In this document: one piece after another, positions 233 to 43,503 of the stretch
Layout of the letters: every line of letters starts with the position of its first letter
How positions within the stretch are numbered: position 1 is the first letter of the stretch
Assembly: GCA_963781725.1 (NCBI GenBank)
Contig: CAWAGV010000002.1
Location: 2,969,531-3,033,530 of the forward strand
Direction: 5' to 3'
Origin: an uncultured Alphaproteobacteria bacterium
GTDB taxonomy: Bacteria > Pseudomonadota > Alphaproteobacteria > Rhizobiales > Xanthobacteraceae
DNA length: 64,000 bases
The notes under the pieces: model-generated
Database searches by the model: none
Told to the model about the DNA's origin: nothing
Seen by the model: the letters and a program-made list of their open reading frames with translations, nothing else
Program-made: the position numbers and the translations under genes

Positions 233-308
233 GGGCCCGTAGCTCAATGGTTAGAGCTAGCGGCTCATAACCGCTTGGTTGGAGGTTCGAGTCCTCCCGG
301 GCCCACCA
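233..308 (+). tRNA. tRNA with anticodon CAT (tRNA-Met by anticodon; features suggest lysidine-type tRNA-Ile2), CCA encoded
   Basis: 76-nt cloverleaf folded by hand. Acceptor GGGCCCG/CGGGCCC, D stem GCTC/GAGC, anticodon stem AGCGG/CCGCT with loop CTCATAA, variable loop TGGTT, T stem GGAGG/CCTCC with loop TTCGAGT, discriminator A, CCA at 306-308. Confidence 0.95.
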
Positions 309-310
309 CG
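301..310. repeat. left copy of 10-bp direct repeat GCCCACCACG (tRNA 3' end plus 2 nt); candidate attL core
   Basis: Exact 10-mer recurs at 43494-43503, where base composition switches. Confidence 0.4.
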
Positions 311-661
311 CACTCCGGCGCTAACAGAGATTTCCCGGTCTTTTGGTGTATAGCGGCTATTCGCGGGGTTGCTCACTGGCGATTATTCTCTGGAATGGCC
401 TTCAGTCGATACGCTCCGCTCCTTAGCGATTTTGTCTCTGCTCGCAAATTTCCGTTTCCCGGAAGCAGAGATCTTAGTTCGAAGAGACGTGGTTCGAGGA
501 CGGAGCTGTCGAGGTAGCAAGCCCGAGCATTTTGTGTTGTCGGGACCATTCTGAACTATTATCGCCACGTCCGTTCCATTTGGCTTTCCTCATCGGCACG
601 CGCGGATATGATTCTCGGACGGGACAGCGACGGCGAACGGGACAATCAGGATAAGACTGCT

Positions 662-1501
662 ATGGCAAGCGTAGAAATCCGGCCGGGCGTCATTATGGCT
701 TATGACGACTATTGTTTTGCCGAACCTTGGACCTCGCCGCCGACAATTGTCGCGGTTCATGGCAATGCCGAATCCGCGCGGGCATGGACCTGCTGGATAC
801 CGTTCCTTGCGGACCAGTATCGTGTCGTGCTCCCGGACATGCCGGGTTTCGGCCGCTCTGTCGCTCCCCCGGCCTATCAGTGGCAGGTCACTGAGATTGC
901 CGCCGATCTTGGCCGCTTCCTTGATGCGGCAAAGATTGAGCGCTGCCACCTCATGGGCGCGAAATATGGCGGCTCGGTCGTCACGCAATTCGCAATCGAT
1001 CATTCCGATCGGTTATTTTCACTTTCGCTGTTTGGCTCACCGGTGCGCGGTAGTGGCAGCGGCAATGCTGACAAGATCCGCGATCTTGGCGTTCGCGGTT
1101 GGGCGCAAGCGACGCAGCGCGCGCGTCTCGGCAGCAAGGCTTCGGACGCCCAAATCGCCTGGTGGACCGACGAGCTGATGGGCAAGACTGATCCACGCGC
1201 CGCATTCGGCGCCTCGTCGGCGCGCATAGACATGGAGCTCGAGGAACGGCTTGGCCGCATTACCTGCCCAACCTTGATTGTGACGACCCAAGAAAGCGGG
1301 CTGCAATCGGTCGCGGCTGTCGAATCCTACGCGGGACGCATTGCTGATGCGCGCTTGATCGTGCTGCCGGGGGACAGCTATCACATCGCCGCGGCAGAAC
1401 CGGCCATCTGCGCCAGCCACATGGCCCGGTTTCTCGCCGACGTTTCGGCGCGCTCCGCGGCGGAGGCTCCGGCTAGGACCTCATCGCCTGTAAGCACTTA
1501 G
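662..1501 (+). CDS. alpha/beta-fold hydrolase family protein (atypical nucleophile elbow)
   Basis: ORF 608-1501; ATG 662 (MASVEIRPG...) preferred. It has an HG oxyanion motif (VAVHGNAES) and a C-terminal His (GDSYHIAAAEP). The elbow reads G-A-K-Y-G instead of G-x-S-x-G. Confidence 0.75.
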   Translation: MASVEIRPGVIMAYDDYCFAEPWTSPPTIVAVHGNAESARAWTCWIPFLADQYRVVLPDMPGFGRSVAPPAYQWQVTEIAADLGRFLDAAKIERCHLMGAKYGGSVVTQFAIDHSDRLFSLSLFGSPVRGSGSGNADKIRDLGVRGWAQATQRARLGSKASDAQIAWWTDELMGKTDPRAAFGASSARIDMELEERLGRITCPTLIVTTQESGLQSVAAVESYAGRIADARLIVLPGDSYHIAAAEPAICASHMARFLADVSARSAAEAPARTSSPVST

Positions 1502-1512
1502 GGATAAGTCCT

Positions 1513-2505
1513 GTGACCGTATCGCTTTCACGTCGCGATCTGTTCAAATCAACGATCGGCGTTGCCACTGCGGCCTCCGTACTCGATATCGCATCATTCC
1601 CTGCGCGGGCCGACTGGCCAAGTCGATCGGTCCACATCGTGGTGCCATTTCCGCCTGGCGGTGGTGCCGATCTGATCTCGCGCCTGCTGGCGCCCCATCT
1701 GCAGCAGACTTTTGGCGAAGGCTTCATCGTCGAGAACCATTCCGGCGCGGCCGGCCGCATCGGCACTAGCTATGTAGCCAAAGCCGATCCGGATGGAGAG
1801 ACGCTGCTAGTGACGACCGAGTCCTCGATTGTTATCGCGCCCCATGCTGGCGTCGAAATGAACTACGACCCCCTCAAGGACCTCGTGCCGGTCTCGCTGC
1901 TCACGCGCAACACGGTTCTCCTTGTCGTTCATCCATCGGTGCCGGTGAATTCGCTGCGGGAATTTATGGAACTGTTGCGGTCAAAACCCGGACAGATCAC
2001 GTATGGCTCCTCGGGTGTCGGTGGGCCAAACCATCTCGCCGGCGAGATTTTCAAACGCATGACCGGCCTCGACATCGTGCATATTCCGTTTCAGGGGACG
2101 GGCGCGGCACTACAAGGTGTGATCGCGCACCAGGTCGATGCGATGTGGGGCTTCATGGCGGGTCTGATCCCGCAAGTGCGGGCCGGGACGTTGCGCCCGA
2201 TCGCAATGGGCGGACGCGAGCGCTCGGCGGCGCTGCCAGACGTTCCAACTTTCGCAGAGGCGGGCGTACCCGGTTATGAGGCGGTATCGTGGATCGGCAT
2301 GTTCGCCCCTCGAGGGACGGATCAGGCGATTGCCGAGAAACTTTCCGCTGCAGTCAAGACTGCAATGCAAATGTCTGACGTCAAGGATGTGCTGCAGCGC
2401 GACGGCTCGGAGATCGCTGCCACCGCGCCAGCGGAATTCCGTGACGTGATCGCGAACGATTACGCGAAATACGGCAAATTCGCCGATCTGCTCAAGGGTC
2501 AGTAA
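1513..2505 (+). CDS. Bug family tripartite tricarboxylate transporter substrate-binding protein (TctC-like)
   Basis: 330 aa, GTG start. Tat-like leader (SRRDLFKS...) is followed by WPSRSVHIVVPFPPGGGADL, the hallmark N-terminal Bug motif. About 320 aa, typical of the family. Confidence 0.9.
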   Translation: MTVSLSRRDLFKSTIGVATAASVLDIASFPARADWPSRSVHIVVPFPPGGGADLISRLLAPHLQQTFGEGFIVENHSGAAGRIGTSYVAKADPDGETLLVTTESSIVIAPHAGVEMNYDPLKDLVPVSLLTRNTVLLVVHPSVPVNSLREFMELLRSKPGQITYGSSGVGGPNHLAGEIFKRMTGLDIVHIPFQGTGAALQGVIAHQVDAMWGFMAGLIPQVRAGTLRPIAMGGRERSAALPDVPTFAEAGVPGYEAVSWIGMFAPRGTDQAIAEKLSAAVKTAMQMSDVKDVLQRDGSEIAATAPAEFRDVIANDYAKYGKFADLLKGQ

Positions 2506-2653
2506 CGGCCCTGCATCGCGGCGCCTCTCGATAATATCGAGTCGTCAGCTTCGACTGGAGCAAAGTCGCAGCCGAACGGGCAGGTCCTTCCTTGCCAATG
2601 TCGGTATACCCGGTTATACCGGGCTCAGAACGGAACCGTAGGGAGAGAACGTC

Positions 2654-3250
2654 ATGGCTATTACCACGACCGTCCTTGTGCCAACCGGCGCCCCAGAAAT
2701 TGGCTCAATCCCGACCACCCAGCGTCCGAAGTCGTTGCATGGCCTCCGCGTTGCCCTGTTGGATAATGGCAAGGAATTCTCCGACATCGTTCTTGATGCG
2801 CTAGCGGCGACGTTGAAGAAGGAGCACGGCGTTACCCACATCAAGTTCTGGCGCAAAGGCTTTCCCGCCAAGGGCGCACCGTTCATTGACGAGATGGTGG
2901 CGGAGTCTGATGTCGCGGTCTCCGGCGTTGGCCATTGTGGATCGTCCTCGCCCTGGAGCGTTATTGACGCGGTGAATCTGGAAAAGGCCGGCGTTCCGAC
3001 TGTTGCGTTAATCAGCCGCTCGTTCTGCTCGCTCGGTCAGATCGTCGGTCGCGGCGTCGGCCATCAGGCGCTGCCGATCATCATGTTACCGCATCCGATC
3101 GGCGAGGCTGACGAAAGCCGTATCGCGCAGAAGGGCATTGATGCCGCCGCCGAATGCGTGCGCCTTCTCACGACGCCGGCCGATAAGGTCAGTGCCGAAT
3201 ATGCCAACAAGAAATTCCTGTTGCCGGAACACGCTGTCGCGCGCCGATAA
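2654..3250 (+). CDS. hypothetical protein, possibly UGSC-family / GrdB-like redox protein (Cys form)
   Basis: 198 aa with good coding pattern. Motif VSGVGHCGSSSPW lies after a Rossmann-like stretch (LRVALLDNGKEFSD). The family assignment is from memory only and unverified. Confidence 0.6.
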   Translation: MAITTTVLVPTGAPEIGSIPTTQRPKSLHGLRVALLDNGKEFSDIVLDALAATLKKEHGVTHIKFWRKGFPAKGAPFIDEMVAESDVAVSGVGHCGSSSPWSVIDAVNLEKAGVPTVALISRSFCSLGQIVGRGVGHQALPIIMLPHPIGEADESRIAQKGIDAAAECVRLLTTPADKVSAEYANKKFLLPEHAVARR

Positions 3251-3313
3251 TTCCCGAACCGAAATTCAATCGGCGACGCAGGTTGCGGCCGAAAAGACAT
3301 ATGAGGCCACATA

Positions 3314-4384
3314 ATGTTGGATCGAATTCAAACGCCGGCTCTCAATACCATTGAGCTTCCGGATTTTATCGAGGCAATCAACGACCACTTCTACGAGCGA
3401 GGCTGGACCGATGGCCTGCCGGTAATCCCGCCGACGGCGGAGCGCGTTGAGCGCATGCTCTCGGGCATGAACTGGCGGGCGCCGGATGCGGTCATCGGAC
3501 TGATCCCGCCGGGCATGGGTGTCGCGACGCTGCGCACGATCGCTATCAATGCGGTGATGGCAGGATGTCTTCCGGCCTATCTGCCGGTCGTGGTCGCTGC
3601 GGTCGAGGCGGTGTTGGAGAAACAGTATGGCCTCGCGCATCGCCAGACAACGACCCATGCCGGTGCGCCTCTGCTGATCGTGAACGGTCCGATCATCGAG
3701 GAGATCGGGCTTAACTACGGCAACGGCGTGTTTGGTCCCGGTTGGCGTTCGAATGCGACCATCGGCCGTGCACTGCGACTCACGTTGGTCAATGTCGGCG
3801 GCGCGATCCCGGCGGAAACCGACTTCTGCCAGCATGCGCACCCTGGCAAATACACCTATTGCATCGCCGAGCATCAGGCTGCCAATCCTTGGGAGCCGCT
3901 CCACGTCGAGCGTGGCTTCAAGCCCGAGGAAAGTGTCGTCACGGTGATTAATGCCGAGGCGCCGCACAGCATGACGGAGAATGTGCAGACCGATCCGATC
4001 GAGATCATGCGTACTTTCGCCGACACGATGGCGACCTATGGCAGCAACAATCTCTATTCGCAGGGCAATCCCGTTGTTGTCCTCGGTGTCGAACATGCCC
4101 AGCACATTGCTGCCGCCGGTTGGCGCAAGAAGGATATCCAGATGGCGCTGTTTGAAATGGCGCGCCGTCCGTGGGGTATCGCCAAGAATCGCGGCAAGTC
4201 GAAAGGACCGTTCTTTCCGGTCTGGGTCGACAAGAAAGATGAGAACGCGCTCGTTCCGATTATCAACGAGCCGAAGGATCTGGTTGTCTTGGTGGCCGGC
4301 GGTGCGGGCGGCAAGTCGATGTGGTGCCCGACGGCCGGCGCCCAGAGCCTGAGTGTCAGCAAGGTGATCGAGCGGGGCGAATGA
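3314..4384 (+). CDS. conserved hypothetical protein (no family recognised)
   Basis: 356 aa ORF containing GWTDGLPVIPPT. Its stop overlaps the start of the next gene (ATGA at 4381-4384), which implies co-translation with the MmgE/PrpD gene. Confidence 0.7.
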   Translation: MLDRIQTPALNTIELPDFIEAINDHFYERGWTDGLPVIPPTAERVERMLSGMNWRAPDAVIGLIPPGMGVATLRTIAINAVMAGCLPAYLPVVVAAVEAVLEKQYGLAHRQTTTHAGAPLLIVNGPIIEEIGLNYGNGVFGPGWRSNATIGRALRLTLVNVGGAIPAETDFCQHAHPGKYTYCIAEHQAANPWEPLHVERGFKPEESVVTVINAEAPHSMTENVQTDPIEIMRTFADTMATYGSNNLYSQGNPVVVLGVEHAQHIAAAGWRKKDIQMALFEMARRPWGIAKNRGKSKGPFFPVWVDKKDENALVPIINEPKDLVVLVAGGAGGKSMWCPTAGAQSLSVSKVIERGE

Positions 4385-5817
4385 CGGCAGCGGGCACGGC
4401 CAAGAGCGTGGCAGCCGGAGCGGTCCGATCTGCCGGGTCGCCGACCAAGATACTCGCTGGCTTTGCGGCCGGGTTGCGCGGCGGCGATTTGCCCCGGTCC
4501 GTAGTCGATGCGCTGGGCGACCTCTTTCTCGACTATCTCCGCGTCGGTTCGATCGGCGCGGACATGGAGTGGAGCGGCTGGGCACGTCACTATATGGCGG
4601 CCCTCAAACGGGAGGGTGGTGCGCCAGTTCTCTTCACCAAGACCGGTTGCGATCCGGTCGGCTCGGCTTTCCTGAATACGACCTTTGCAGGAAGCATCGA
4701 TGCCGACGACACCCATGTCGGCTCGATGCTGCATCCTGGCTCAATCGTCTTCTCGTCTGCGCTTGCGGTGTGCGGCGAACGGTCCGGCAGCGAATTTCTC
4801 GCCGCGGTGGCCGCGGGCTACGAGGCAATGATCCGCATCGGCCTTTCGATCCAACCGACGCACTTCCGTCGCGGCTTCCAGAGCACGTCAACCTGCGGCG
4901 GTTTTGGTGCGGCGGTTGCGGCGTCGCGATTGTTGTTTGCTGGCACGGCTGAGGCCGACCGCCATATCGCTGAAGCAATTGGAATTGTCGCGTCGTTTTC
5001 CGGTGGCCTGACGCAGTTCTACCAGTCAGGCTCCACTGTGAAGCGCATCCATGCCGCGCGTGCAGCAGAAAACGGCGTCTCGGCGGCGCTCCTCGTCGCC
5101 GAAGGATTTTCCGGCCCGACCGATATCATCGAAGGCTCCAACGGCTTCGCCCGCGCTTACGCCGACGCATTCGACCCCGCAATTATCACCGACAATTTAG
5201 GAAGCGCCTATCTGCTCGACGGCGTCACCGTTAAGGGGCATGCCGCGAGCGCGCGCGTCCAGGCCGCAATCGAAGGCGTGCTCGATCTCTGCCGTGAGCA
5301 TCGTGTAGCAGCCACCGATATCGCCGACCTTTATGTTGGGATTCCGGCAGTGATCCTGGGTCGGCTGACGATCCCACGTCCGGTGGACGTGCAGGCGGCG
5401 CAGATGAGCCTGCCGCATAGCGTCGCCCTTGCGGCGGTTCTCGCGCCCAAGGCCAGCGATGGTTTTGCGCTCAGCGTGCGCGATTACGAGCAAAGCATTT
5501 CGGATAGCGCCGTGAAGGAAGTCGAGCAACATGTTCGTTGCGAGGTCGATCCGGAGGTCGAGGGGGCAACGACTGCAGAATCTGTTCCGGCTCGCATTGT
5601 CATGAAGCTCAAATCTGGCGCGACGTTCACGACGTTCGTGCCGGCGCCAAAAGGCAGCCCGTCCCGTTCCTTTACTCCAGCAGATCATGCCGCCCGGTTT
5701 CGCCGCGAACTCGAGCGCCGTTGGCCGGCGGGGCGTTGCGACGCGATTATCGAGATGTCGCGCAACCTGCCGGGGCTCAAGGATATGCGCGACCTCGTTG
5801 GCCTGATTGCTTCATAA
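4381..5817 (+). CDS. MmgE/PrpD family protein (paralog 1)
   Basis: ORF 4321-5817; ATG 4381 overlaps the upstream stop. Length and motifs (FLDYLRVGSIGA, DDTHVGSMLHPGS, GFGAAVAASRLL) are typical of the 2-methylcitrate dehydratase / MmgE fold. Confidence 0.85.
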   Translation: MTAAGTAKSVAAGAVRSAGSPTKILAGFAAGLRGGDLPRSVVDALGDLFLDYLRVGSIGADMEWSGWARHYMAALKREGGAPVLFTKTGCDPVGSAFLNTTFAGSIDADDTHVGSMLHPGSIVFSSALAVCGERSGSEFLAAVAAGYEAMIRIGLSIQPTHFRRGFQSTSTCGGFGAAVAASRLLFAGTAEADRHIAEAIGIVASFSGGLTQFYQSGSTVKRIHAARAAENGVSAALLVAEGFSGPTDIIEGSNGFARAYADAFDPAIITDNLGSAYLLDGVTVKGHAASARVQAAIEGVLDLCREHRVAATDIADLYVGIPAVILGRLTIPRPVDVQAAQMSLPHSVALAAVLAPKASDGFALSVRDYEQSISDSAVKEVEQHVRCEVDPEVEGATTAESVPARIVMKLKSGATFTTFVPAPKGSPSRSFTPADHAARFRRELERRWPAGRCDAIIEMSRNLPGLKDMRDLVGLIAS

Positions 5818-5837
5818 TTGCTGCGGGAGAAGGGGCC

Positions 5838-6653
5838 ATGTCATACGCTCGTATAACGAGGGCTCCCGAGAGTGCTGGCGCTCAGCGTGCCCGGAATCAA
5901 CAGAAAATGAAGTCTCGACCGCGCGCCCGGGCTACCGCTGCCAATCCGAAATCTGGCGTAACGGCCACAGGTCTTGCCGCTCTCGCCAAGCGTTTCGCCA
6001 ATGCCGGAACGGCAGCCGAAGTCGCTTATGCGGTCCTGCGCGAAGCGATCCTCAGCAATGCCTTTACGCCTGGAATGCGGTTACGTGCCGACGATCTCGC
6101 CAAGGAGTTGGGCGTCAGCAAGACGCCAGTGCGTGAAGCGATACGCAAGCTACAGGCGGAAGATTTCGTCGTGGTCGGTGCCGGGAATGCGCTGACCGTG
6201 AAGGTCCTTTCCGAGACGCAGCTGCTCGAAATCTACTATACGCGCGAGGCGCTCGAAGGTATGGCAGCGCGGCTCGCTGCAGAAAATGCGGGCCAACTCG
6301 ATCTCACGCAATTGCGCGCTGTGCTGCATGACGTTGAAGTGGCGCTCGATAGATCCGATCGCGACGCTATCCGGAATTACACCGGTGAATTCCAACTCGC
6401 GGTCTTCAAGGCCGCTCACAACGATTTCCTTTTCAATTTGCTCAAGTCTTTGCAGGAAAAGATCCGAAATCACCAGACCAGCACGATCAGCGTACCGGGC
6501 CGCGACGAAGAGGTGGTAGCCTTCTGCCGCGACGCGCTGCGCGCCATCGAAGCGCGAGATCCGGATGCGGCCGAACGGATTTCGCGTGCTAATCGGCGCC
6601 GCACGTTGGAACTTCACCTCAAGATGATGCGCAACTCGCCGGCGACCCAATAA
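5838..6653 (+). CDS. GntR family transcriptional regulator (FCD-type C-terminal domain)
   Basis: Winged-HTH stretch LRADDLAKELGVSKTPVREAIRKLQAEDFVV followed by a helical ligand domain. The track ORF starts at 5538, but that extension overlaps the PrpD gene. ATG 5838 lies just after the PrpD stop. Confidence 0.85.
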   Translation: MSYARITRAPESAGAQRARNQQKMKSRPRARATAANPKSGVTATGLAALAKRFANAGTAAEVAYAVLREAILSNAFTPGMRLRADDLAKELGVSKTPVREAIRKLQAEDFVVVGAGNALTVKVLSETQLLEIYYTREALEGMAARLAAENAGQLDLTQLRAVLHDVEVALDRSDRDAIRNYTGEFQLAVFKAAHNDFLFNLLKSLQEKIRNHQTSTISVPGRDEEVVAFCRDALRAIEARDPDAAERISRANRRRTLELHLKMMRNSPATQ

Positions 6654-6692
6654 AAGCCCCCGTCATTCGATAGAAAAGACCAGGGAGATCTG

Positions 6693-7739
6693 ATGGCCAA
6701 GGATGAGGGACCTGAACGCACGATTGCACGGGACTGGGCCAGGATTACCCGACGGACGCTACTTCAGCTCTCTCCGGCCGCGGTCTTTTGTCCCCTAGCC
6801 GCGGAAGAGGGGCGGGCGGAGGACTATCCCTCGCGATCGATAACGCTGCTTGTTCCTTTTACCCCTGGCGGAAGCGTTGATCTCATAGCGCGGCTCACTG
6901 CGGCAAAAATGGCCGATAACCTTGGCCAGCCCGTTGTGGTGCTAAACCTTCCTGGTGCTTCTGGTGCTATTGCTACAATGCGCGTCGTCAACGCAGCGCC
7001 TGATGGATACACGCTCGAAATCTGTACACCGCGCGAAATCAGCACTGCTGCGCTGGTGAACCCTAACGTTACCTACGACGTGGAGCGTGACTTTACTTAT
7101 ATCGCTCTTGGCGGCAGATCGCCTATCGTTGTAGCCGGTGGTCCGACCCTTAAAAATACGACGACATTTTCCGATCTATTGGCCGAGGCGCGCCGGCGCC
7201 CGCAAGGCCTGACCTACTCAACATCCGGCGTAGGCTCGCCGCAGCATTTTCTCGGTGAGCTGATCAAACAACGGTTCGGCATAGAGCTTATTCACGTGCC
7301 ATTCTCTGGCGGCACAGGCGGCCTGCTCGAAGTTCTCGGCGGTAACGTGGATATAACAATCATTACGCTGTCGAGCGCGTTGCAATACATAGAGTCAAGT
7401 AAGCTGATCGGTTATGGCCTTGCCGAGGTGAAGCGTACGCCACTTGCTCCGGAAATACCGGCACTCGCGGAGTACAAAGAACTCGCCGACGTTGATATGG
7501 GTATCTGGTATGGACTTATCGGTCCCGCCGGAATGCCCCCGGCAGTCGTCGGCCGCCTTAACCACTCTTTCCGTGATGCACTTAAAGACCCCGAAGTGCA
7601 GGCGCAGTTGCATCAACACGCTACCGCCGTGATTACGGGCTCGCCTTCGGATTTCGAAGAATACGCGCGGCATGACATTTCCTTTTATCGCAGAATCGTG
7701 GCGGAAACTCACATGCAGCTAGTTAAACCGTCGAAATAG
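6693..7739 (+). CDS. Bug family TTT substrate-binding protein
   Basis: 348 aa; leader followed by YPSRSITLLVPFTPGGSVDL. Confidence 0.9.
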   Translation: MAKDEGPERTIARDWARITRRTLLQLSPAAVFCPLAAEEGRAEDYPSRSITLLVPFTPGGSVDLIARLTAAKMADNLGQPVVVLNLPGASGAIATMRVVNAAPDGYTLEICTPREISTAALVNPNVTYDVERDFTYIALGGRSPIVVAGGPTLKNTTTFSDLLAEARRRPQGLTYSTSGVGSPQHFLGELIKQRFGIELIHVPFSGGTGGLLEVLGGNVDITIITLSSALQYIESSKLIGYGLAEVKRTPLAPEIPALAEYKELADVDMGIWYGLIGPAGMPPAVVGRLNHSFRDALKDPEVQAQLHQHATAVITGSPSDFEEYARHDISFYRRIVAETHMQLVKPSK

Positions 7740-8153
7740 ATAAACTCATTCTCGCATTTTGGAAGCAGCCTAATCGAAACGGCTGAACCGTTGTTGTCCA
7801 TTCGTCCGCCAGTGTCACTTGATCGCAGGCTAAATGCTTCTGATGGCGGCCGTTGCAGGCGATGAATCCTCGGGCCCGGCCCGCTCCACGGTCAGTATGA
7901 TCGCACTTGTAACTGTGGCCAAGCTTACGATTTTCGATGAAATGTCCCGACGGTCGGAAACTCCCGGTCGGTCGCGGTTTACGCGTAGTGCTGAGATCGA
8001 GAGTTGGCGCTGCATCCCGAGACGGCCTTGCTTGCGCTCCTTCACCGACTGGCGCTGGTCACGGTCTTCCATGGCGGCGATGATTTCTGCATGGAGATCG
8101 CGCCGCGCAGCGCGCATCTTAAGCGGTTGCTTTATGATGACCGCCGGCGCGAA

Positions 8154-8174
8154 GCCTCATCGATGAGGGCTTTT
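8154..8174 (+). terminator. candidate hairpin plus T-run (intrinsic-terminator-like)
   Basis: Perfect palindrome CCTCATCGATGAGG (8155-8168) followed by GCTTTT. It lies in the 479-nt gene-free gap between the Bug gene and the SDR gene. Confidence 0.25.
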
Positions 8175-8218
8175 GAAAGCGCGGATCGTTTCGAGTGAGA
8201 TGCCCCTGCGATCGTCGG

Positions 8219-9016: not shown

Positions 9017-9048
9017 CGCCGATTTCTCTCCAGTGATTTGACTTCGCT

Positions 9049-32945: not shown

Positions 32946-32980
32946 CTGCGCCGTGCTTCGATGCACTTCGGCGGGGAGGA

Positions 32981-35666: not shown

Positions 35667-35691
35667 CGTCAATCCCTCCCCCAATTTATTC

Positions 35692-36699
35692 TTAGTCGAC
35701 CGTACCGATGACCGGAATCAGTTTGGCGAATTTGTCGACTTCCTGCTGGTAATAGATGGAGAAGTCGTGCGGCGTGCCGTACATCGGTGAATTGCCCTGT
35801 GCGGAGAGAGACGCTTTTAGGTCGTCAGATTTTAACGCCTGTTCAGTTGCGGTCGCCAACCGGTCGATGATTTCCGGTGGAGTCCCGTGTGGGGCCAGAA
35901 GCCCAGTCCAGAGCCACACATTGAAACCAGGGATCCCAGCCTGCGCTACGGTCGGAAGATTCGGAAGCGCGGGGTCCGGCTTGTCGCCGGTTGTGGCCAA
36001 TCCGATGAGCTGACCGTTCCTCACGAAACCCAGAACCGGCGGTATCGAAGAAAACATCACCTTCTCCTGGCCGGACAAGAGATCTTTAATAGTTTCACCG
36101 CCGCCTTTGTAGTGCACCGCCGTCATCTTTATTCCCGCGGCCAGGTTGAATAGTTCTGCAGCAAGATGAGTCGATGTTCCCTTACCCGCCGTCGCATAAA
36201 GCAGATCATCGGGATGGAGCTTGGCATAACTGATCAGCCCGGCAACATCGGTTATGTTCAACGATGGATGAACGACGAGCACGAGGGATGTTCCGGCAAG
36301 CGGTGCGATCGCAGTAAAGTCCTTTGCAACCTTGATCGGAAAGTTTGCAAACAAGCTTTCGTTGACCGCGGTGCTCGGCGCCGCGATCATTAGTGTGTAG
36401 CCATCAGGTGCTGAATGAGCGACGTATTCGGTTGCGATGTTACCGGAAGCACCGAGCTTGTTCTCGACGTAGATTTGCTGACCCAGAATTTCGCCGAGCT
36501 TCGCGGCAATTGTTCGCGCGATGATGTCCGCCGGGCCGCCGGCGGCGAACCCGACGACCACCTTAATCGGCCTGACCGGATAGTTTGTCTGTGCCTGGGC
36601 GGCGCTAGCGATCAGCGCGACGGCGGCCGCGATCACCACTAGCAATCGCAGCCCGACAGGCCGCTTCGGAATCTGCCACTCGTTAATCAGACCTCTCAT
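35692..36699 (-). CDS. Bug family TTT substrate-binding protein
   Basis: YPVRPIKVVVGFAAGGPADI after a signal peptide. ATG 36699 (alternative 36708) chosen for RBS spacing. The track ORF extends to 36807. Confidence 0.88.
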   Translation of the reverse strand: MRGLINEWQIPKRPVGLRLLVVIAAAVALIASAAQAQTNYPVRPIKVVVGFAAGGPADIIARTIAAKLGEILGQQIYVENKLGASGNIATEYVAHSAPDGYTLMIAAPSTAVNESLFANFPIKVAKDFTAIAPLAGTSLVLVVHPSLNITDVAGLISYAKLHPDDLLYATAGKGTSTHLAAELFNLAAGIKMTAVHYKGGGETIKDLLSGQEKVMFSSIPPVLGFVRNGQLIGLATTGDKPDPALPNLPTVAQAGIPGFNVWLWTGLLAPHGTPPEIIDRLATATEQALKSDDLKASLSAQGNSPMYGTPHDFSIYYQQEVDKFAKLIPVIGTVD

Positions 36700-36882
36700 T
36701 GAAAACATTCCTCTCCCATGGTGTCGCTCATTGGATTTTTCTGGGCAAGTTCCTGCAAAAAACAAATGCAGGCCTAGCAAATGGAGATTGGTATTAATAT
36801 TGGACATTTAGCCCTAAAGACAACTATCTTCGTCACGCCGCTTTTCCGTGGGGCAAAATGAGAACGTCAGGAGGGATGCAAC

Positions 36883-37869
36883 TTGGGTACGTTCAGGGCA
36901 ATCGTGATTGAGAAGGCCGAGGGAGGCCAAACCACCAAACTGGCCGATTTTGACGATGCCAATCTGATGGACGGGGATGTAACGGTCCGGGTCCTGTGGT
37001 CGACGATCAATTATAAGGACGGTCTCGCGATCACAGGGAAAGCACCGGTGGTTCGTCGTTTCCCGATGATTCCCGGTATCGACCTCGTGGGAGAAGTCGA
37101 AGCCTCTTCGCATCCGGACTGGGTTTCGGGAGATCAAGTCATCCTCAACGGTTGGGGGGTCGGCGAAAATCACCTAGGCGCGTTTGCAGAGAAAGCGCGC
37201 GTAAAGGGCCAATGGCTGGTGCGATTGCCGGACGATCTCAGCGCACGCGAGGCTATGGCTCTCGGCACCGCAGGCTACACCGCGATGCTATGCGTTATGG
37301 CGATCGAGCGTCACGGACTGACGCCCGATCGGGGGCCGATATTGGTCACGGGTGCAGCGGGCGGCGTGGGATCGGTTGCCATCGCGTTGCTGGCAACGCT
37401 CGGCTTCAAGGTCATCGCATCGACGGGAAGGCCAGAGGAAGCCACCTATCTCACCGCATTGGGTGCAAGCGAGATTATCAATCGCAGTGAGCTTTCTGAA
37501 CCAGCGCGGCCGTTGGCAAAAGAACGCTGGGCCGGCGCCGTCGATACGGTCGGGTCAAATACCTTGGCCAATGTCTTGGCGATGACCAGGTACGGCGGTG
37601 CAGTAGCTGCCTGCGGGCTCGCCGGCGGCATGGATCTGCCGAGCAGTGTTGCGCCCTTTATCTTGCGGGGCGTCGCGCTCCTCGGCATCGATTCGGTGCA
37701 GTGCCCGCTCCCGGAGCGTTTGAAGGCATGGCATCGGCTGAGCATGGAAGTCGACCGCGACAAACTCAAAATGGCAACTCGAGAGGTCGGCCTCCCTTAC
37801 GTCATCAAGGAGGCCGACGCTATTGTTGCCGGACAAGTGCGCGGTCGGACGGTTGTGCGGCTCGATTAG
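36883..37869 (+). CDS. YhdH/AcuI-type MDR NADPH-dependent oxidoreductase (acrylyl-CoA reductase family)
   Basis: TTG start after GGAGGG. WSTINYKDGLAITGK and VTGAAGGVGSVAI are typical of the YhdH subgroup. Confidence 0.8.
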   Translation: MGTFRAIVIEKAEGGQTTKLADFDDANLMDGDVTVRVLWSTINYKDGLAITGKAPVVRRFPMIPGIDLVGEVEASSHPDWVSGDQVILNGWGVGENHLGAFAEKARVKGQWLVRLPDDLSAREAMALGTAGYTAMLCVMAIERHGLTPDRGPILVTGAAGGVGSVAIALLATLGFKVIASTGRPEEATYLTALGASEIINRSELSEPARPLAKERWAGAVDTVGSNTLANVLAMTRYGGAVAACGLAGGMDLPSSVAPFILRGVALLGIDSVQCPLPERLKAWHRLSMEVDRDKLKMATREVGLPYVIKEADAIVAGQVRGRTVVRLD

Positions 37870-37876
37870 CGGCCGC

Positions 37877-37895
37877 GGAGGGATTCTATCCCTCC
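37877..37895. terminator. hairpin GGAGGGA-TTCTA-TCCCTCC between convergent genes
   Basis: 7-bp perfect stem and 5-nt loop read directly. There is no flanking T-run, so terminator function is uncertain. Confidence 0.25.
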
Positions 37896-37905
37896 CTAGG
37901 CGGAG

Positions 37906-38202
37906 TTATTCAAGGCCTTCGACGATACGGAGATCGCGTTCGGCGCAGTCTCCAAAAACTTTAAGAGCAGCCTGGTAATCGGGGCTATCGTGGGCCTCGA
38001 TTGCCTTTTCTACGCTTTCAAACTCGATGAGAACGACGCGTTGAGCGACGCCAGCCTCGTAGGCCTTGGCGGCAACGCCGCGGGCCAGATTACGGGCGCC
38101 ATATTTTGCGAACGCCGGTCCGGCAAGTTTGGCGTACTCGCCGAGCTTGTTTGGATCTTTGATCGAACGATAAACCGATACGAGATAGCCTTTCTTCGCC
38201 AT
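37906..38202 (-). CDS. DUF1330 domain-containing protein
   Basis: ATG 38202 with GGAG 6 nt upstream. MAKKGYLVSVYRSIKDPNKLGEYAKLAGPA... fits the DUF1330 pattern as I recall it. Confidence 0.75.
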   Translation of the reverse strand: MAKKGYLVSVYRSIKDPNKLGEYAKLAGPAFAKYGARNLARGVAAKAYEAGVAQRVVLIEFESVEKAIEAHDSPDYQAALKVFGDCAERDLRIVEGLE

Positions 38203-38260
38203 GTTAATCTCCATTGTTGGCGGGTTGAGGTCGTTATGACTGGGTGCGCGCCTGCGACGC

Positions 38261-39163
38261 CTAGATGCCGAAATGGTTGCCGATGAATTTGAGCATGCGC
38301 TCGAACGTGTCGCCGATCTTTGTCAAATCGGGCGCATGGCCGACATTGCGCTCGCCGTCGAAGTAGCACAGTTCGATCTCTCCGCCGGCCTTGCGATAGT
38401 TCTCGGCAAAACGCGGCGCTTCCGTCAGCGGCGAGCTCGATTCTTCATCCTTGTAGTCGTGTAGCGGGTCGTCCGTGCATTGATGCCAAATGGACGGTGG
38501 CAGCTCTACGGCTTCTCCACGCTCGAGGATCAGCGTCGGATTTCCATCAGCCATCGCCGCTTCGTCTGACCAGAACTGGTTATGTTTATCGACGATCGCA
38601 GAGGCCCATTCCGGCGGGTTCGCCAATGCGGCTTGTCGTTTCGCATAACGGTACCGGCTGAGCGGATTGATCACCGGCCAGGACATGATGACGCCGCGTA
38701 CTGTGGCGTCGAACCGTGCCGAACCGGACTTCAGCGGGATCGAGCAATAGCGGGGATCATTCGGCCGCATCCCCGCCAGCATCGCAAGGTGCCCGCCGCT
38801 GGACTGACCGGAAATTCCGATCAATTCCGGTCGCGTCTTCAGTTCTTTGGCGTGAGCCTTGCACCAGCGGATGGCGTAATTGATGTCTTGCAGCGACTTT
38901 GGGTAGTATCCCTCGCGGGCGACCCGCCAATCCAGCGAAACGACAACAACGCCGTGGGCTGCGAGCCACTCGTGGCGCACTTTGTCGCTGAATCGATTTT
39001 GCAAGCACCAGGCGCCGCCGTGCAGATCGATGACGGCGGGGAAAGGTCCTGCACCGCGCGGTTTGAACACGCGGGCCATGAATGGCTTGTCGCCGTGGCG
39101 CAAATACTCCACGTCCTCGACGCTAAACTCATGAGTGGCCGAAACCGACGCTTCAGCGTCCAT
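38261..39163 (-). CDS. alpha/beta hydrolase (esterase/lipase, HGG-type)
   Basis: Oxyanion DLHGGAW and nucleophile elbow GQSSGGHLA. Confidence 0.85.
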   Translation of the reverse strand: MDAEASVSATHEFSVEDVEYLRHGDKPFMARVFKPRGAGPFPAVIDLHGGAWCLQNRFSDKVRHEWLAAHGVVVVSLDWRVAREGYYPKSLQDINYAIRWCKAHAKELKTRPELIGISGQSSGGHLAMLAGMRPNDPRYCSIPLKSGSARFDATVRGVIMSWPVINPLSRYRYAKRQAALANPPEWASAIVDKHNQFWSDEAAMADGNPTLILERGEAVELPPSIWHQCTDDPLHDYKDEESSSPLTEAPRFAENYRKAGGEIELCYFDGERNVGHAPDLTKIGDTFERMLKFIGNHFGI

Positions 39164-39458
39164 GACGTGATTCCTCCCACATTATTTCTGGACGGACATA
39201 CGCCGCCGGACGCTGCTGAGCCAGCGAAGATAATATCAGACTTTTATCTATTTTGGATTAATGTTAGACATTTAGCAACTCGCGACGCGACGGAAGACTG
39301 AGAATTTAGTCCTCACAAGGTGCGCCATTCCAGCAAGCTACGAGGCGATAGCGTCGAGCTCCGGACTTTATTGGCGCATCAGTTCTTTTCCGAAGCGATG
39401 GCTAACAAGGCGGCAAATTATTCGCGGGCACCAAAGCCGCCGCTCGGGAGGAAACGGT

Positions 39459-40427
39459 ATGCTCAGGGCTTTGCTCGTCTGTTTGCAGGCGCTTGTGATT
39501 GTTTCGGTTGCTCAAGCGCAGCAGGATTATCCAAACAGATTGATCAAGATCATTTTTGGTTCGCCGCCGGGCGGCAACCTTGATGCCGTCACGCGCCTCC
39601 TGGCTCACGGCATTGAGACCAGCATGGGACAGCATGTCATCGTTGAAAGTTCATCGCCTGGATTGGGCGGCGCGGCCGCAGCCGTGACAACGGCCCGCAG
39701 CGATCCCGACGGCTATTCGCTTCTGGTTCTATCGGCTGGATTTCCCGCTTATTCCGCGTTGTCGAAAAGCACCCTGATCCAGCCTGTCGACGGACTGACA
39801 TGGATTTCGCTGATTACATCCTATCCTTTCATGATTTACGTGAAAGCCGATTCGCCCTTTAAGACGCTGGGGCAACTTATCGAGGCTGCGCGAGCGCATC
39901 CCGGCGAACTCAAATATGGCTCCGCCGGAGCGGGTTCGCTGCTGCACACCAGTGTCGAACTGCTGGCAAACAAGACCGGCGTAAAATTTCTGCACGTGCC
40001 TTATCGCGGCGAAGTTCCCGCGATCACGGCGTTGATCGCCGGAGAGATCGACTTCGTCTCTACGACAACCGGTCCAACGACGGAGAGGGTGCGAGCGGGC
40101 GAACTGCGGGCGCTTGCGGTCACTGGCAAAACGCGATGGCCCGAATTTCCCGACGTGCCAACCGTTGGAGAGGCGATTTCGCTTCCAGATTTCGAGGTTA
40201 TTTCATGGTCTGCGCTGGCAGGTCCGCCCAAACTTCCGGAACCGATCGTAAGCCGCCTCAACGCCGAAGTTCGCAAGGCGCTTGCCGTTCCCGATATCAA
40301 ATCCAAGCTCGAGGCATTGGGGGGAGACCCACATGCCAATTCGCCCGCGGACATGGAAGCGCTCGTTCAGAGCCAGTACGAAACCTGGAAACAGCTTGCC
40401 GTGACCGCTCACATCTCGATCGAATGA
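39459..40427 (+). CDS. Bug family TTT substrate-binding protein
   Basis: GGGAGGAAA RBS. Signal peptide ...VAQAQQ, then YPNRLIKIIFGSPPGGNLDA. Confidence 0.9.
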   Translation: MLRALLVCLQALVIVSVAQAQQDYPNRLIKIIFGSPPGGNLDAVTRLLAHGIETSMGQHVIVESSSPGLGGAAAAVTTARSDPDGYSLLVLSAGFPAYSALSKSTLIQPVDGLTWISLITSYPFMIYVKADSPFKTLGQLIEAARAHPGELKYGSAGAGSLLHTSVELLANKTGVKFLHVPYRGEVPAITALIAGEIDFVSTTTGPTTERVRAGELRALAVTGKTRWPEFPDVPTVGEAISLPDFEVISWSALAGPPKLPEPIVSRLNAEVRKALAVPDIKSKLEALGGDPHANSPADMEALVQSQYETWKQLAVTAHISIE

Positions 40428-40496
40428 GGTCGTGGCGGCGATGAAAATGCACAAGCCATTGCCGCGTTTGACCGGTCATTAAGGCGGACAGTTCTT

Positions 40497-41837
40497 ATGA
40501 AAGAACAGATGCACCTCGCGATAGACGTCTCCTGGACAAACGTTGAAACGACCTGGCGGGAGACAGGATCCAGAATGGGGCGGCATTATCCGGATATCGG
40601 TCTTTTTGAAGATATCGCCCGCATTTCCGAGCGGGGCCTGTTCGACATGATCTTCTCCGGTGACAGCACGGGGATTCCCGGAACGTGGCGGAGCTCGATT
40701 GACGACGCGGTTCGATATGGGGTGGCTTTTCCACGGTTCGACATGAGTCCGTGGGTTGCCGCAATGTCCCGAGTCACCAGTCATATCGGGTTTGGGCTGA
40801 CTTACGCGACGACATTCATGCATCCATATTACGTCGCCCGTCTGCTCAATTCGCTCGACCACCTGAGCAGCGGACGCATTGCGTTCAACGTCGTCACTTC
40901 GCAGCGTAAGGCCGATGCTCAGAACTTCGGTTTTGACGAACTTATGGAGCATGGCGATCGCTACGATCGGATGGATGAATTCATCGATGTCTGTCGCGGC
41001 CTGTGGGCGGGCGTTGAGCCTGACGCATTTGAGTGGGACCGCAATACCGGGCTGGTTGCCGATCCTGCAAAGGTACACGCCATCGATCACGCTGGAAAAT
41101 ATTTCAAGGTGAAAGGGCCGTTGAACGTACCCGCGTCGCCACAGGTTGCGCCGGTTCTCATCCAGGCCGGCGGTTCTCAGCGGGGTATCCGTGCTTCCGC
41201 CCGTTTTGCCGATCACATATTCGGCGGCCGCTTGCCGCTTCCGTTGATGACAAAGCAGCGCCAGGAGCTTGACGAAGCGTTGCGTGCCGAAGGGCGGGAT
41301 CCGCAAAAGGTCGGGATCATATGGGCTACGCCGATTATCGTTGCGGAAACCGAAGACGCTGCGTTGGCCCTGAAAGAGCGGCTTATTGCGCACGTGCCGC
41401 GGGAAGCTGCCGGCGTCTGGCTCTCGTATAATACCGGCTTTGACATGGCGACGCTGCCGCCACGCTTCTCCTTGCGTGAACTCAATGAGCGAATTATCGC
41501 CGCGAATGCCTCTCCTCTGGGCTTTGTCGGCATTCTCGCGAAAACCTATGGTGAGCATACGGAGATGACGCGAGAGGAGTTCTTCGATCACGGCATCAAA
41601 GCCGCGACAGGCTATGGCAGTACGGAGGCTGGCACGTCAGCACAGATTGCCGATTATTTGGAGGAACGATTTGAAGCGGCTGGAAGCCGTGGGGGTTTCA
41701 TGATTCGACACTCGCAAGGCGATCAGATCGACTTGCTATACAATATCGTCGATCTTCTGGTGCCCGAATTGCAACGCCGCGGGCGCTTCCGCACGCGATA
41801 TACAGGCAACACGTTGCGGGAGAATCTTGCGTCGTGA
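40497..41837 (+). CDS. LLM-class flavin-dependent monooxygenase (NtaA/SnaA/DszA family)
   Basis: 446 aa; same architecture as 24269-25633 (FGLTYATTFMHPYYVARLLNSLDHLSSGRIAFNVVTS). Confidence 0.85.
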   Translation: MKEQMHLAIDVSWTNVETTWRETGSRMGRHYPDIGLFEDIARISERGLFDMIFSGDSTGIPGTWRSSIDDAVRYGVAFPRFDMSPWVAAMSRVTSHIGFGLTYATTFMHPYYVARLLNSLDHLSSGRIAFNVVTSQRKADAQNFGFDELMEHGDRYDRMDEFIDVCRGLWAGVEPDAFEWDRNTGLVADPAKVHAIDHAGKYFKVKGPLNVPASPQVAPVLIQAGGSQRGIRASARFADHIFGGRLPLPLMTKQRQELDEALRAEGRDPQKVGIIWATPIIVAETEDAALALKERLIAHVPREAAGVWLSYNTGFDMATLPPRFSLRELNERIIAANASPLGFVGILAKTYGEHTEMTREEFFDHGIKAATGYGSTEAGTSAQIADYLEERFEAAGSRGGFMIRHSQGDQIDLLYNIVDLLVPELQRRGRFRTRYTGNTLRENLAS

Positions 41838-41863
41838 GCATCCTCGGCACTGAAGCACCGCGG

Positions 41864-42772
41864 TTAAACGCTGCGTGCTCGGAAAGCATTTGCCAGAAAG
41901 CTAATGAATAGCCGCGTTTTAGCGGGCGTATATCTGTTTCTGGGCAGAAGCACGTAAATTCCCGTTTCGTAACCGAACTGACTGGCGACGTACCGCGTGA
42001 GTAAGCGCCGCACTTGGCCGGAGGCTAACTCCTTTCGGATCGCCCACTCGGGCATCAGTGCGACGCCCATGTCCTGGGTCACCGCATCCAGTAATGAAGG
42101 ACCATAGTCGGTTTGAAAGTTTCCTTTCACTTCAACGTCGCTCTGCTTTCCCGAAGGATCGACAAATGACCAATTGGGCCCGCCGGCTGCGAAAGTGTAG
42201 GCCATGCAATTATGGTACTTGAGGTCGGCGGGTTTCTCCAATGGAGGGGAAGAATCCAGGTAACCGGGCGCCGCGATCACGTACCACTCCGTCTCGCCGA
42301 GTTTTCTGACCATGAGATCGCCTTCACTCATTCTGCCAAAACGGATATCCAGATCGATGTTTTGCTCAGCGAGATTGACGCTGGAATTGGACAGAAAAAG
42401 TTGGATTTTGATCTCCGGGTATTTCTCAAGAAAATTCGGAATCAGCGGAGAAACAAACCGGTTGCCCAGCAGCGACCAGGCGTGAACGCGGAGCGTCCCG
42501 CTCGCTTTTTTGATCGCGCTCGACACGCTGCCTTCAGCTTCTGCGACCTGCTGTAAAATCGCCTCGGCGTGGCTGAAATAAAGAGCGCCGGCCTCCGTGA
42601 GGGACATCGTACGGCTGGTACGATTGAGCAATTTTGCACCCAGCTTTTGCTCCAGTTCACTGATAGCGCGCGATATGGCAGCAGGCGACAAGCCAAGTTC
42701 GCGTCCGGTCGCGGAAAAGTTGCCTCGATGAACTGCGCTGACGAAAACCGATATAGAACGCAAAAAATCCAT
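41864..42772 (-). CDS. LysR family transcriptional regulator
   Basis: MDFLRSISVFVSAVHRGNFSATGRELGLSPAAISRAISELEQKLGAKLLNRTSR is a typical LTTR HTH. ATG 42772 preferred over 42781. Confidence 0.9.
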   Translation of the reverse strand: MDFLRSISVFVSAVHRGNFSATGRELGLSPAAISRAISELEQKLGAKLLNRTSRTMSLTEAGALYFSHAEAILQQVAEAEGSVSSAIKKASGTLRVHAWSLLGNRFVSPLIPNFLEKYPEIKIQLFLSNSSVNLAEQNIDLDIRFGRMSEGDLMVRKLGETEWYVIAAPGYLDSSPPLEKPADLKYHNCMAYTFAAGGPNWSFVDPSGKQSDVEVKGNFQTDYGPSLLDAVTQDMGVALMPEWAIRKELASGQVRRLLTRYVASQFGYETGIYVLLPRNRYTPAKTRLFISFLANAFRARSV

Positions 42773-42781
42773 GATGATCAT

Positions 42782-42800
42782 CTTTGCGATTTACGCAAAG
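42782..42800. promoter_or_regulatory. LTTR-type box CTTTGCG-ATTTA-CGCAAAG (contains T-N11-A)
   Basis: 7-bp perfect inverted arms. T42785-N11-A42797. It lies between the divergent LysR and flavin reductase genes. Confidence 0.5.
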
Positions 42801-42886
42801 ATACTATCCCGTCGCAGTGTCTTGATCAAACTGACACTTCGGCCGAAATCTAGACCATCGCGCCCTTTCAAAATCCTGCGAGAGCC

Positions 42887-43414
42887 ATGATGACTGACAA
42901 TGCTGGAGAACTGACGCCGGCTACGCTGCGAAAGGTTTTTGGGCGGTTTCCGACAGGCGTCGCCGCGGTGTGCGCCCAGGTGGGCGGCGAGCAGTACGGA
43001 ATGGCCGTCAGTTCATTTACTTCGGTGTCGCTCGACCCTCCGTTGGCCTCGATCTGCGTGGCGCGGACGTCGACAAGTTGGCCCATTTTGCGCAAGACCG
43101 AGTGCCTCGGCGTCAGCGTTCTTGCCAAGGAACATGATTTGATTTGCAAACAGTTGGCGTCGCGCTCGCGAAACCGGTTTGAAAATGTGCCCTTGTGGAA
43201 CGGGTCTGGAGGGGCGCTTTTTGTCGAAAAAGCTGCGGCTTGGTTTGGTTGCCTAATAGAACGCGAAATTGACGCGGGCGATCATTACATCGTCTTGCTT
43301 CGAATAAATTCGCTAGGGCTGACCCATTCTGCACGTCCGCTGGTTTTTCATGACAGTGCTTTCGTTAATTTAGCAGAGCCGATCAATTCATTAGAAGTGC
43401 GCCCGACAATCTAG
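42887..43414 (+). CDS. flavin reductase family protein (NAD(P)H-flavin oxidoreductase)
   Basis: 175 aa; FGRFPTGVAAV...GMAVSSFTSVSLDPPL is typical of the flavin reductase-like domain. Confidence 0.85.
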   Translation: MMTDNAGELTPATLRKVFGRFPTGVAAVCAQVGGEQYGMAVSSFTSVSLDPPLASICVARTSTSWPILRKTECLGVSVLAKEHDLICKQLASRSRNRFENVPLWNGSGGALFVEKAAAWFGCLIEREIDAGDHYIVLLRINSLGLTHSARPLVFHDSAFVNLAEPINSLEVRPTI

Positions 43415-43429
43415 GGACGGGTCAAGCTA

Positions 43430-43487
43430 AAGTTTCCCTGTTTTGCGAATGGTTTTCCCTGTTATGGCGGCAGCAAGTTTCCCTGTT
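43430..43487 (+). repeat. three direct copies of TTTCCCTGTT (two extended to AAGTTTCCCTGTT)
   Basis: Cores at 43433-43442, 43454-43463 and 43478-43487 (spacing 21 and 24 nt). They sit in the convergent gap between the flavin reductase and MFS genes, 7 nt before the tRNA-end repeat. Confidence 0.85.
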
Positions 43488-43493
43488 CTTCTC

Positions 43494-43503
43494 GCCCACC
43501 ACG
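43494..43503. repeat. right copy of 10-bp direct repeat GCCCACCACG; candidate attR core
   Basis: Exact match to 301-310. With one gap, 15 of 20 positions match the tRNA 3' segment 291-310, and three of the four mismatches are C to T. Confidence 0.4.

Follow-up and report, generated by a model that had tools for sequence, protein, structure and literature searches.

What brought 43 kb of low-GC catabolic DNA to the 3' end of a tRNA gene, and by what means did it arrive? The question is raised by a stretch of 64,000 nucleotides (hereafter the window) from an uncultured alphaproteobacterium of the Xanthobacteraceae (GenBank assembly GCA_963781725.1, contig CAWAGV010000002.1, positions 2,969,531 to 3,033,530), in which a tRNA(CAT) gene (233..308, plus strand; ARAGORN; Rfam RF00005, 72.9 bits) is the apparent integration target. 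An original prediction, made from the sequence alone, had read positions 301-43503 as a decayed genomic island without an integrase. Our analysis bears that reading out, in that both ends of the block match halves of one attachment site and the tRNA is a hot spot for integration. We consider it likely, with a probability of roughly 0.7, that 301-43503 is a grounded, no longer self-mobile island bounded by the attachment-site halves of a tRNA-integrated, phage-like serine-recombinase element, from which the recombinase and backbone genes have since been deleted.

A serine recombinase remnant at the tRNA end

Immediately downstream of the tRNA, window positions 309-551 are collinear with the downstream DNA of this tRNA in three related loci (L140, L116, and L106); the same left-end collinearity is found in L122 (80% identity over 269 nt) and L160 (75% over 270 nt). 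In L140 and L106, this spacer ends at the stop codon of a complete large serine recombinase gene oriented toward the tRNA; the intact proteins carry Pfam Resolvase and Recombinase domains. The window has the equivalent spacer from the tRNA end to a recombinase stop, i.e., a recombinase-side arm (attL arm; 309..515, plus strand) recognized by its collinearity with the relatives. Behind it lies a stub that comprises the last 13 codons of a large serine recombinase (SEWSRQHKMLGLA; 516..554, minus strand), identified by its similarity to the C-termini AEWSRQHEMLGLPS (L140), AEWSRQYTMLGLSI (L106), and AEWTRQYERLGLSP (L099). Its BLOSUM62 local score is 63, versus 26 ± 3.6 (maximum, 42) in 2000 shuffles, and none of 420 control windows drawn from the rest of the window reaches that score (none exceeds 44). 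Recombinase homology ends at ~552, some 55 nt ahead of the first cargo gene.

The original prediction had seen no integrase and had suggested a tyrosine enzyme; no intact gene is indeed present, but the remnant at 554-516 is that of a serine recombinase. In the element family concerned, an intact recombinase gene lies ~200 nt from the RNA gene, and of this feature the window holds the stub only. The recombinase-side arm of the family, CGCA(G/C)TCC..AGAGATTTCCCGG.., is found in the window directly after the core, and the first 30 nt of the spacer (CGCACTCC..AGAGATTTCCCGG) also follow the core in the phage-like contigs L079, L095, and L065, described below. The ~245 bp after the tRNA are, from these comparisons, the recombinase-side end of an integrative element.

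A truncated repeat arm at the far end

At the opposite end of the block, a motif cluster of three direct TTCCCTGTT copies (43434..43487, plus strand) constitutes the other element arm (attR arm), in truncated form. The copies start at 43434, 43455, and 43479 within the gap between convergent genes, the last stopping 6 nt before a 10-mer shared with the tRNA end, and fall within 56 nt, against 0.48 matches expected across the whole window (11-mer, at most one mismatch). Among the loci that had not been fetched by a TTCCCTGTT repeat-pair pattern, such clusters are confined to the window (together with L111, from the same strain), L113, and L409. In L113, where the same tRNA has an insertion, the cluster lies immediately inward of that insertion's distal repeat. 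The same arm is found in L060, L065, L079, and L095, beside genes for a ParB-methylase, a DUF5681 protein, and a terminase. A TTCCCTGTT repeat arm before the core, as is typical of the family, is thus present at the far end of the window.

The window's arm and that of L409 are identical at ~46 of 58 positions up to TTCCCTGTTCTT. Beyond that point, ~150-200 nt present ahead of the core in L409, L113, and L079 are missing from the window, and the distal site is thus a damaged one. The arms of these three loci have five TTCCCTGTT copies and a mimic of the tRNA T-arm; that of the window is shorter. It is also without the 45-56 nt that separate arm and core in intact relatives, which, judging from those relatives, argues against attachment (att) function at the distal site.

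The repeats have a layout of their own. In the form TTCCCTGTT(A), they span 43434-43487 in the window, 7188-7347 in L079, and 13742-13903 in L113; the general pattern is of three copies ~21 nt apart, a gap of ~100 nt, and two more copies, with inverted copies in some elements. The genes for ParB-methylase, DUF5681, and terminase are found downstream of them, and the attachment core is adjacent. The repeats could be packaging, operator, or directionality-factor sites; arm sites are not a known requirement of serine integrases.

Both arms meet in phage-like contigs

Three IMG/VR contigs, L065, L079, and L095, were fetched by the repeat motif alone. Each has three TTCCCTGTT copies 21-22 nt apart and, ~100 nt further on, one exact copy preceded by a near copy, TTCCCTGTA; CCGCCACCACGCAGTCC begins 45-56 nt after this arm. 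In L079, the core runs into AGAGATTTCCCGG, the sequence that follows the window's tRNA (301-338), and in all three contigs the core CCACCACG lies between the two arms. No tRNA gene was found when these contigs were scanned. They encode ParB-N/methylase, DUF5681, large terminase, DUF3489, and large serine recombinase proteins, with a tail sheath in L079. The attachment site of the family would therefore be ordered as repeat arm, core, spacer, and recombinase end.

In the window, the spacer and recombinase end are at the tRNA, the repeat arm and core are 43 kb away, and the orientation matches on both sides. Since its two ends match the two sides of the site in the phage-like contigs, the block lies between two halves of one attachment site, an arrangement that is, as far as sequence can tell, exactly what an integrated element would look like.

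Under the mechanism that we propose, a phage-like element with a large serine recombinase would have entered the 3' end of the metW-linked tRNA(CAT). Recombination around a short core, CCACCACG, with the attachment site of the element and the end of the tRNA as partners, would have left a half-site at each end. The recombinase-side half would now be 309-554, at the tRNA, and the TTCCCTGTT-repeat half 43434-43503, at the far end. Later deletions would have taken the recombinase except for its last 13 codons, the other element genes, and ~150-200 nt of the repeat arm. Between the ends there would remain 43 kb of uptake and catabolic modules with low GC content at third codon positions (GC3), usable by the host as ordinary chromosomal genes. 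That both ends derive from one integration event, and the order of the events, we infer; the catabolic DNA may either have come as cargo of the element or have later replaced the interior of a grounded prophage.

In other IMG/VR contigs, the 3' half of this tRNA is present as partial copies that neighbor genes for a serine recombinase, DUF2924, and DUF3489. In L099 (5480-5526; also in L098, L100, and L101), a perfect copy of ~45 nt of the tRNA's 3' half, with no full tRNA, sits between two sets of serine recombinase and DUF2924 genes. The L099 site may be an attachment site in which the mimic of the tRNA is long, or else a tandem array; the type is a second variant of the family, with an identity segment far longer than the window's 10 nt. 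Scans of IMG/VR for the repeat arm together with the exact tRNA-Met core returned only chance matches and an unrelated conserved 46-nt sequence. The nearest cultured relatives of the recombinase are those of Acidithiobacillus phage AcaML1 (53% identity over the N-terminal 62%) and Wolbachia phage WO (32%).

The 10-nt core

The sequence GCCCACCACG occurs exactly at 301..310 (plus strand), as the tRNA's last 8 nt plus 2, and again at 43494..43503 (plus strand), at the island's right end, with no further copy in the window. The distal copy is 6 nt past the third arm repeat and at most ~100 nt from the main GC change point. A second copy somewhere in the window would be expected ~0.17 times by chance, and 2 of 100 shuffles gave two copies. 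The repeat that had been put forward as evidence for an island is thus real as an exact match, but on its own it is not significant; its meaning derives from the sequences that flank both copies. The proposed extension of the distal copy to 15 of 20 tRNA positions did not hold, being at background level: of 2122 windows scanned, 31 have alignments to the 3' half of the tRNA that equal or better that of the distal site. A decayed copy of the tRNA 3' half was accordingly rejected as a description of that site. Rfam, promoter, and terminator scans of the two end gaps returned nothing besides the tRNA.

ARAGORN assigns the tRNA itself to Met on the basis of the CAT anticodon. The acceptor stem (C4-G69, C5-G68) and the anticodon arm recall the lysidine-modified tRNA-Ile2 of Escherichia coli, and the gene may encode either an elongator tRNA-Met or a tRNA-Ile2.

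Composition of the block

A lower-GC block had been predicted from hand counts of 60-nt lines, all 18 of which proved exact on recount. GC content is 0.573 in 309-43503 versus 0.640 in 43504-64000, and likelihood change-point analysis of the whole window places the main switch at ~43.6 kb (log-likelihood ratio, 130). Among genes called with Pfam support, all of them the window's own, the 43 from 608 to 43414 have GC3 values of 0.57-0.74 (mean, 0.65) and the 14 right of 43.5 kb have values of 0.77-0.84 (mean, 0.80); the separation is complete (Mann-Whitney U = 0, p = 2.5e-8). The 3' end of metW at the left edge (1..153, plus strand; Pfam MetW PF07021), a host gene left of the tRNA, is a 50-codon fragment with a GC3 of 0.92, and for this reason we regard the right side as host-like and the block as the odd one. 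The block thus combines two marks of a genomic island, i.e., atypical composition, as measured against the window's right side and metW, and linkage to a tRNA, at whose 3' end it begins.

Over 6.7-43.4 kb, GC3 is fairly uniform (0.64 ± 0.04). The same change-point analysis gave a weaker switch at ~6.3 kb (log-likelihood ratio, 21), which we considered as a candidate internal junction and rejected, since it falls inside a gene module (2603-7738) whose counterpart in the relative L055 has the same drop.

The metW-linked tRNA as an integration site

Eighty related metagenome loci containing the end of metW (L112-L191) were fetched, in ~50 of which tRNA(CAT) follows metW. The DNA downstream of this tRNA differs in nearly every relative. 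Downstream DNA of ~600 nt or more is available for ~30 metW-tRNA loci. In nine of these, the gene next to the tRNA encodes a tyrosine integrase (five of one family and four of another), and in two (L116 and L140) a large serine recombinase is the first or second gene; an integrase thus adjoins this tRNA in 11 related loci. Genuine repeats of the tRNA end are found in L143 (28 nt, 6.4 kb away), L113 (18 nt, 3.8 kb), and L146 (17 nt, 0.7 kb). Taken together, these loci indicate that the metW-adjacent tRNA(CAT) is a hot spot for two tyrosine-integrase families and one serine-recombinase family.

Some of these loci are informative in themselves. L143 contains, at ~1,700-8,100, a complete 6.4-kb islet with a 28-nt boundary repeat (tRNA positions -16 to +12); along with L135 and L150, it exemplifies tyrosine integrases at this same tRNA. 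In L160, an apparent IS630/Tc1-type transposase, judged by eye (10738-11421, 300-983 nt after the tRNA), replaces the recombinase after the arm, as though the same scar had been overwritten in another way.

Cargo of the block

The cargo proper, at 608..43414, comprises 43 low-GC3 genes for uptake and catabolism, with contents identified by Pfam. Uptake is represented by seven TctC/Bug receptors, a TRAP DctP receptor, and an ABC system. The enzymes include three MmgE/PrpD proteins, several short-chain dehydrogenases/reductases (SDRs), a VanA-like Rieske oxygenase, and a BKACE protein, with an acyl-CoA set of acyl-CoA dehydrogenase, hydratase, CoA-transferase, and thiolase-like genes. Two luciferase-like monooxygenases and a flavin reductase, lactonases, hydrolases, and GntR and LysR regulators are also encoded. 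Pfam reveals no intact integrase, transposase, or conjugation gene in 301-43503, and no domain of the element backbone (ParB-N/methylase, DUF5681, large terminase, DUF3489, or DUF2924) in the block; in place of the mobility gene typical of islands, there is only the 13-codon recombinase remnant.

Parts of this cargo recur elsewhere. A module of UGSC, an unknown open reading frame, PrpD, GntR, and TctC genes (2603..7738, plus strand) has 83% nucleotide identity to L055; in L055-L057, its counterpart has IclR and AMP-binding genes upstream and no tRNA there. A second module, of two SDRs, DctP, and the VanA-like oxygenase (8199..12168), has 87-91% nucleotide identity to L409, where it lies directly after a TTCCCTGTT arm and beside rpoD, amylase, and glycosyltransferase genes; the VanA gene of L408 has yet other neighbors. 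The cargo is, on this comparison, a mosaic of modules found in other contexts in relatives.

The L409 arm (5940-6850) is the same variant as the window's, in complete form, with a fragment resembling a tRNA 3' end (GGTTCGAATCCAGGCGCCCCAGCCA). It has host-like genes (GC3, 0.76-0.83) on one side and the low-GC3 VanA module on the other, a border position which hints that arm and catabolic modules may travel together. An unrelated serine recombinase lies 8 kb further on in L409.

The window was also considered as DNA of plasmid origin. This was rejected, as megablast of 50 kb of it against PLSDB gave only tRNA and single-gene matches.

The right flank and the search for an empty site

Synteny defines the first part of the right flank (43528..46573) as a host-like module of MFS transporter, SDR, and LysR genes with GC3 values of 0.77-0.79. 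The flank as a whole (MFS transporters, oxidoreductases, HpaB, and others) is accessory in kind and high in GC3. The LysR-SDR-MFS module is conserved in more than 20 Xanthobacteraceae-type genomes, the nearest by MFS protein being Xanthobacteraceae and Pseudolabrys metagenome-assembled genomes, at 75-81% amino-acid identity; across 53 genome loci with the MFS gene, only LysR-SDR-MFS is syntenic. L054 is 83.6% identical at the nucleotide level over 43534-46574, and the homology stops at the MFS stop codon. In L016, a tRNA-Met gene lies 8 kb from the MFS gene, in the other orientation.

The original prediction had proposed looking for relatives with an empty site, in which the MFS gene would be the immediate neighbor of the tRNA; none was found in ~135 related loci. 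The relatives at hand are too distant or too rearranged for this test, and L111, which is near-identical (99.95%), comes from the same strain and has the same junction, is uninformative as to presence or absence. In L411, two extra genes stand between the LysR-SDR-MFS module and a DUF2189/RND efflux cluster.

Alternative explanations

Several observations weigh against a grounded island with the two halves of one attachment site at its ends. Among the 53 loci with the MFS gene, the 31 scanned for tRNAs include none with the tRNA beside it as expected, and none of the 80 metW loci has the right-flank genes or the junction. In the three closest relatives examined, whose LysR is at least 90% identical, DUF2189/RND efflux genes border the module at its MFS or SDR end. 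What now lies right of the core may therefore differ from the DNA that was originally downstream of the tRNA. The interior modules occur in unrelated contexts in relatives, and the interior itself has no trace of phage genes (tblastn of the family's proteins against the window gave no match at E ≤ 0.05). L409 has its low-GC3 module on the arm's core side, opposite to the window, so that the association of arm and cargo does not reduce to a simple picture of cargo inside an element; rearrangements are part of the history. The recombinase-side arm, which in L122 and L160 is backed by other DNA, could be an old relic common to the clade. Lastly, a 10-mer is expected ~0.17 times by chance window-wide and, the distal arm being truncated, the retention of the 10-nt core could be a coincidence of the deletion end point.

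The main rival is accretion at the hot spot, which we regard as an unlikely but credible alternative. The end remnants would then stem from different integrations of related elements and the catabolic DNA would have arrived separately, e.g., carried by another island or several, or through homologous recombination with DNA entering the cell, with all mobility genes deleted afterward; 301-43503 would be a plasticity region rather than one former element. The variability of the DNA downstream of the tRNA and the three integrase families that use it favor such a history, as do tandem arrangements in L113 and L099, the presence of modules 2603-7738 and 8199-12168 in other contexts at 83-91% nucleotide identity, the unrelated DNA behind the arm in L122 and L160, and the different order of arm and VanA module in L409. 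However, a new integration would come to lie between the tRNA and the recombinase-side arm of an older element, yet nothing separates that arm from the tRNA here, and its partner arm is found at the opposite end of the block in matching orientation. The fairly uniform GC3 over 6.7-43.4 kb also speaks against accretion, and a search of the window found no internal copy of the core or of an arm motif that would mark a sub-junction within the block.

That there is no island at all, the lower GC being ordinary heterogeneity of accessory catabolic genes and the 10-mer and nearby motifs being due to chance, seems to us very improbable. Such a view could draw on the chance expectation of the 10-mer, the background-level extension into the tRNA, the likewise accessory character of the right flank, and the lack of an empty site among the loci examined; it is countered by a recombinase stub far above chance, by arm repeats limited to the window and L111, L113, and L409 among loci not fetched by the repeat pattern, by independent phage-like contigs in which the two sides of a single site correspond to the two ends of the block, and by the complete separation in GC3. 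We give still less credit to the converse idea, i.e., that the high-GC stretch at 43.5-64 kb is foreign, the low-GC block being native. The right-hand genes are accessory (MFS transporters, oxidoreductases) and their order is unlike that of relatives, as this idea would have it, but the GC3 of housekeeping metW (0.92) is near that of the right side and far from that of the block, relatives have the orthologous LysR-SDR-MFS module in contigs whose GC3 is uniformly high, and the L409 VanA module is again lower in GC3 than the neighboring rpoD.

A broader proposal is that the family's attachment-site arms may be a recurring vehicle for low-GC3 catabolic modules in soil Xanthobacteraceae. The window's block would then be recombinase-less, att-flanked cargo for which excision or movement, in trans or by accretion, would still be possible given a recombinase from a phage of the same family. 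A hint of such a link comes from L409, where this arm variant and this VanA-type module are neighbors at another chromosomal location; we consider the proposal distinctly doubtful.

Relation to known systems

Serine integrases use small sites without long repeats (PMC1470463), which the short core of the window fits. Like prophages of the Bxb1 type (PMC1470463), the window's element family combines Resolvase and Recombinase domains with small, low-identity att sites and a recombinase gene at one element end. A TTCCCTGTT repeat arm beside the site has not been described as necessary for serine integrases. Identity to cultured phages, AcaML1 and WO included, is low, and the window is without phage genes. 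In grounded prophages, loss of the recombinase or damage to an att site fixes the element in place, and the region goes on to gain and lose genes (PMC6379469). A lost recombinase and a damaged att site are common to those prophages and the window, whereas the window's interior is entirely catabolic, with nothing phage-like, and an origin in a complete prophage is only a possibility.

The closest described analogue is found in the ssrA islands of Dehalococcoides, 15 of which have no integration module and were proposed to be cis-mobilizable (PMC3146451). Those islands and the window share insertion at the 3' end of a small stable-RNA gene, G+C below that of the host, and metabolic cargo. The far boundary of the ssrA islands has a short direct repeat derived from the end of the RNA gene, to which the exact 10-nt repeat of the window, not significant by itself, would correspond. 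The reverse-strand serine-recombinase module beside attL and the ParB-domain gene of the ssrA islands likewise have counterparts in the window's element family. By its att ends, the block would fit the cis-mobilizable type, with remnants at both ends and no recombinase or transfer gene. The differences are also clear: the target is tRNA(CAT) beside metW, not ssrA; the core is 8-10 nt versus 20; the recombinase is reduced to a 13-codon stub; and a TTCCCTGTT repeat arm is present. Moreover, the family's recombinase travels with DUF2924, DUF3489, and phage packaging and tail genes, in contrast to the Dehalococcoides integrase, which is a CcrB homologue.

Classical tRNA islands with tyrosine integrases are characterized by a tRNA 3' target, atypical composition, a far repeat of the tRNA end, and adaptive cargo. 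The window resembles them in target, composition, and cargo, and differs in having a serine-family remnant and no intact integrase. Its repeat is far shorter than the 17-28 nt of neighboring elements in relatives.

For its host, a soil bacterium, the event would have meant a gain of 43 kb of additional uptake and degradation genes at a tRNA hot spot, in the scar of a serine-recombinase element. In other respects this is ordinary island decay, a common fate of islands at tRNA genes. What is usefully added is an identified element family, together with the end signatures by which integrase-less scars of this kind may be recognized: the CGCA(G/C)TCC..TTTCCCGG spacer, the recombinase C-terminus EWSRQ..LGL, and the TTCCCTGTT repeat arm. 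Island predictors that depend on an integrase are likely to miss such scars.

Other features of the window

Within the block, a cassette of lactonase (SGL), MmgE/PrpD, and short-chain dehydrogenase genes is present twice in inverted orientation (15984-19192, minus strand; 29792-32945, plus strand), the two copies being ~72% complementary at the nucleotide level in segments of 311 and 116 nt (repeats I1 and I2). Eight TctC/Bug-type periplasmic receptors are encoded in 1513-58958, seven of them in the island, and no TctA or TctB is among the called window genes. The LysR gene at 41864-42781 encodes 305 amino acids in a Logan assembly and 247 in the NCBI record, a start-codon discrepancy. In the right flank, an AsnB-type amidotransferase gene is found beside that of a GCS2-family ligase (60411-63608). 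Plasmid records annotate a homologue of the AsnB-type gene as N-acetylglutaminylglutamine amidotransferase, and the annotation suggests that the two genes may be an osmoprotectant synthesis pair.

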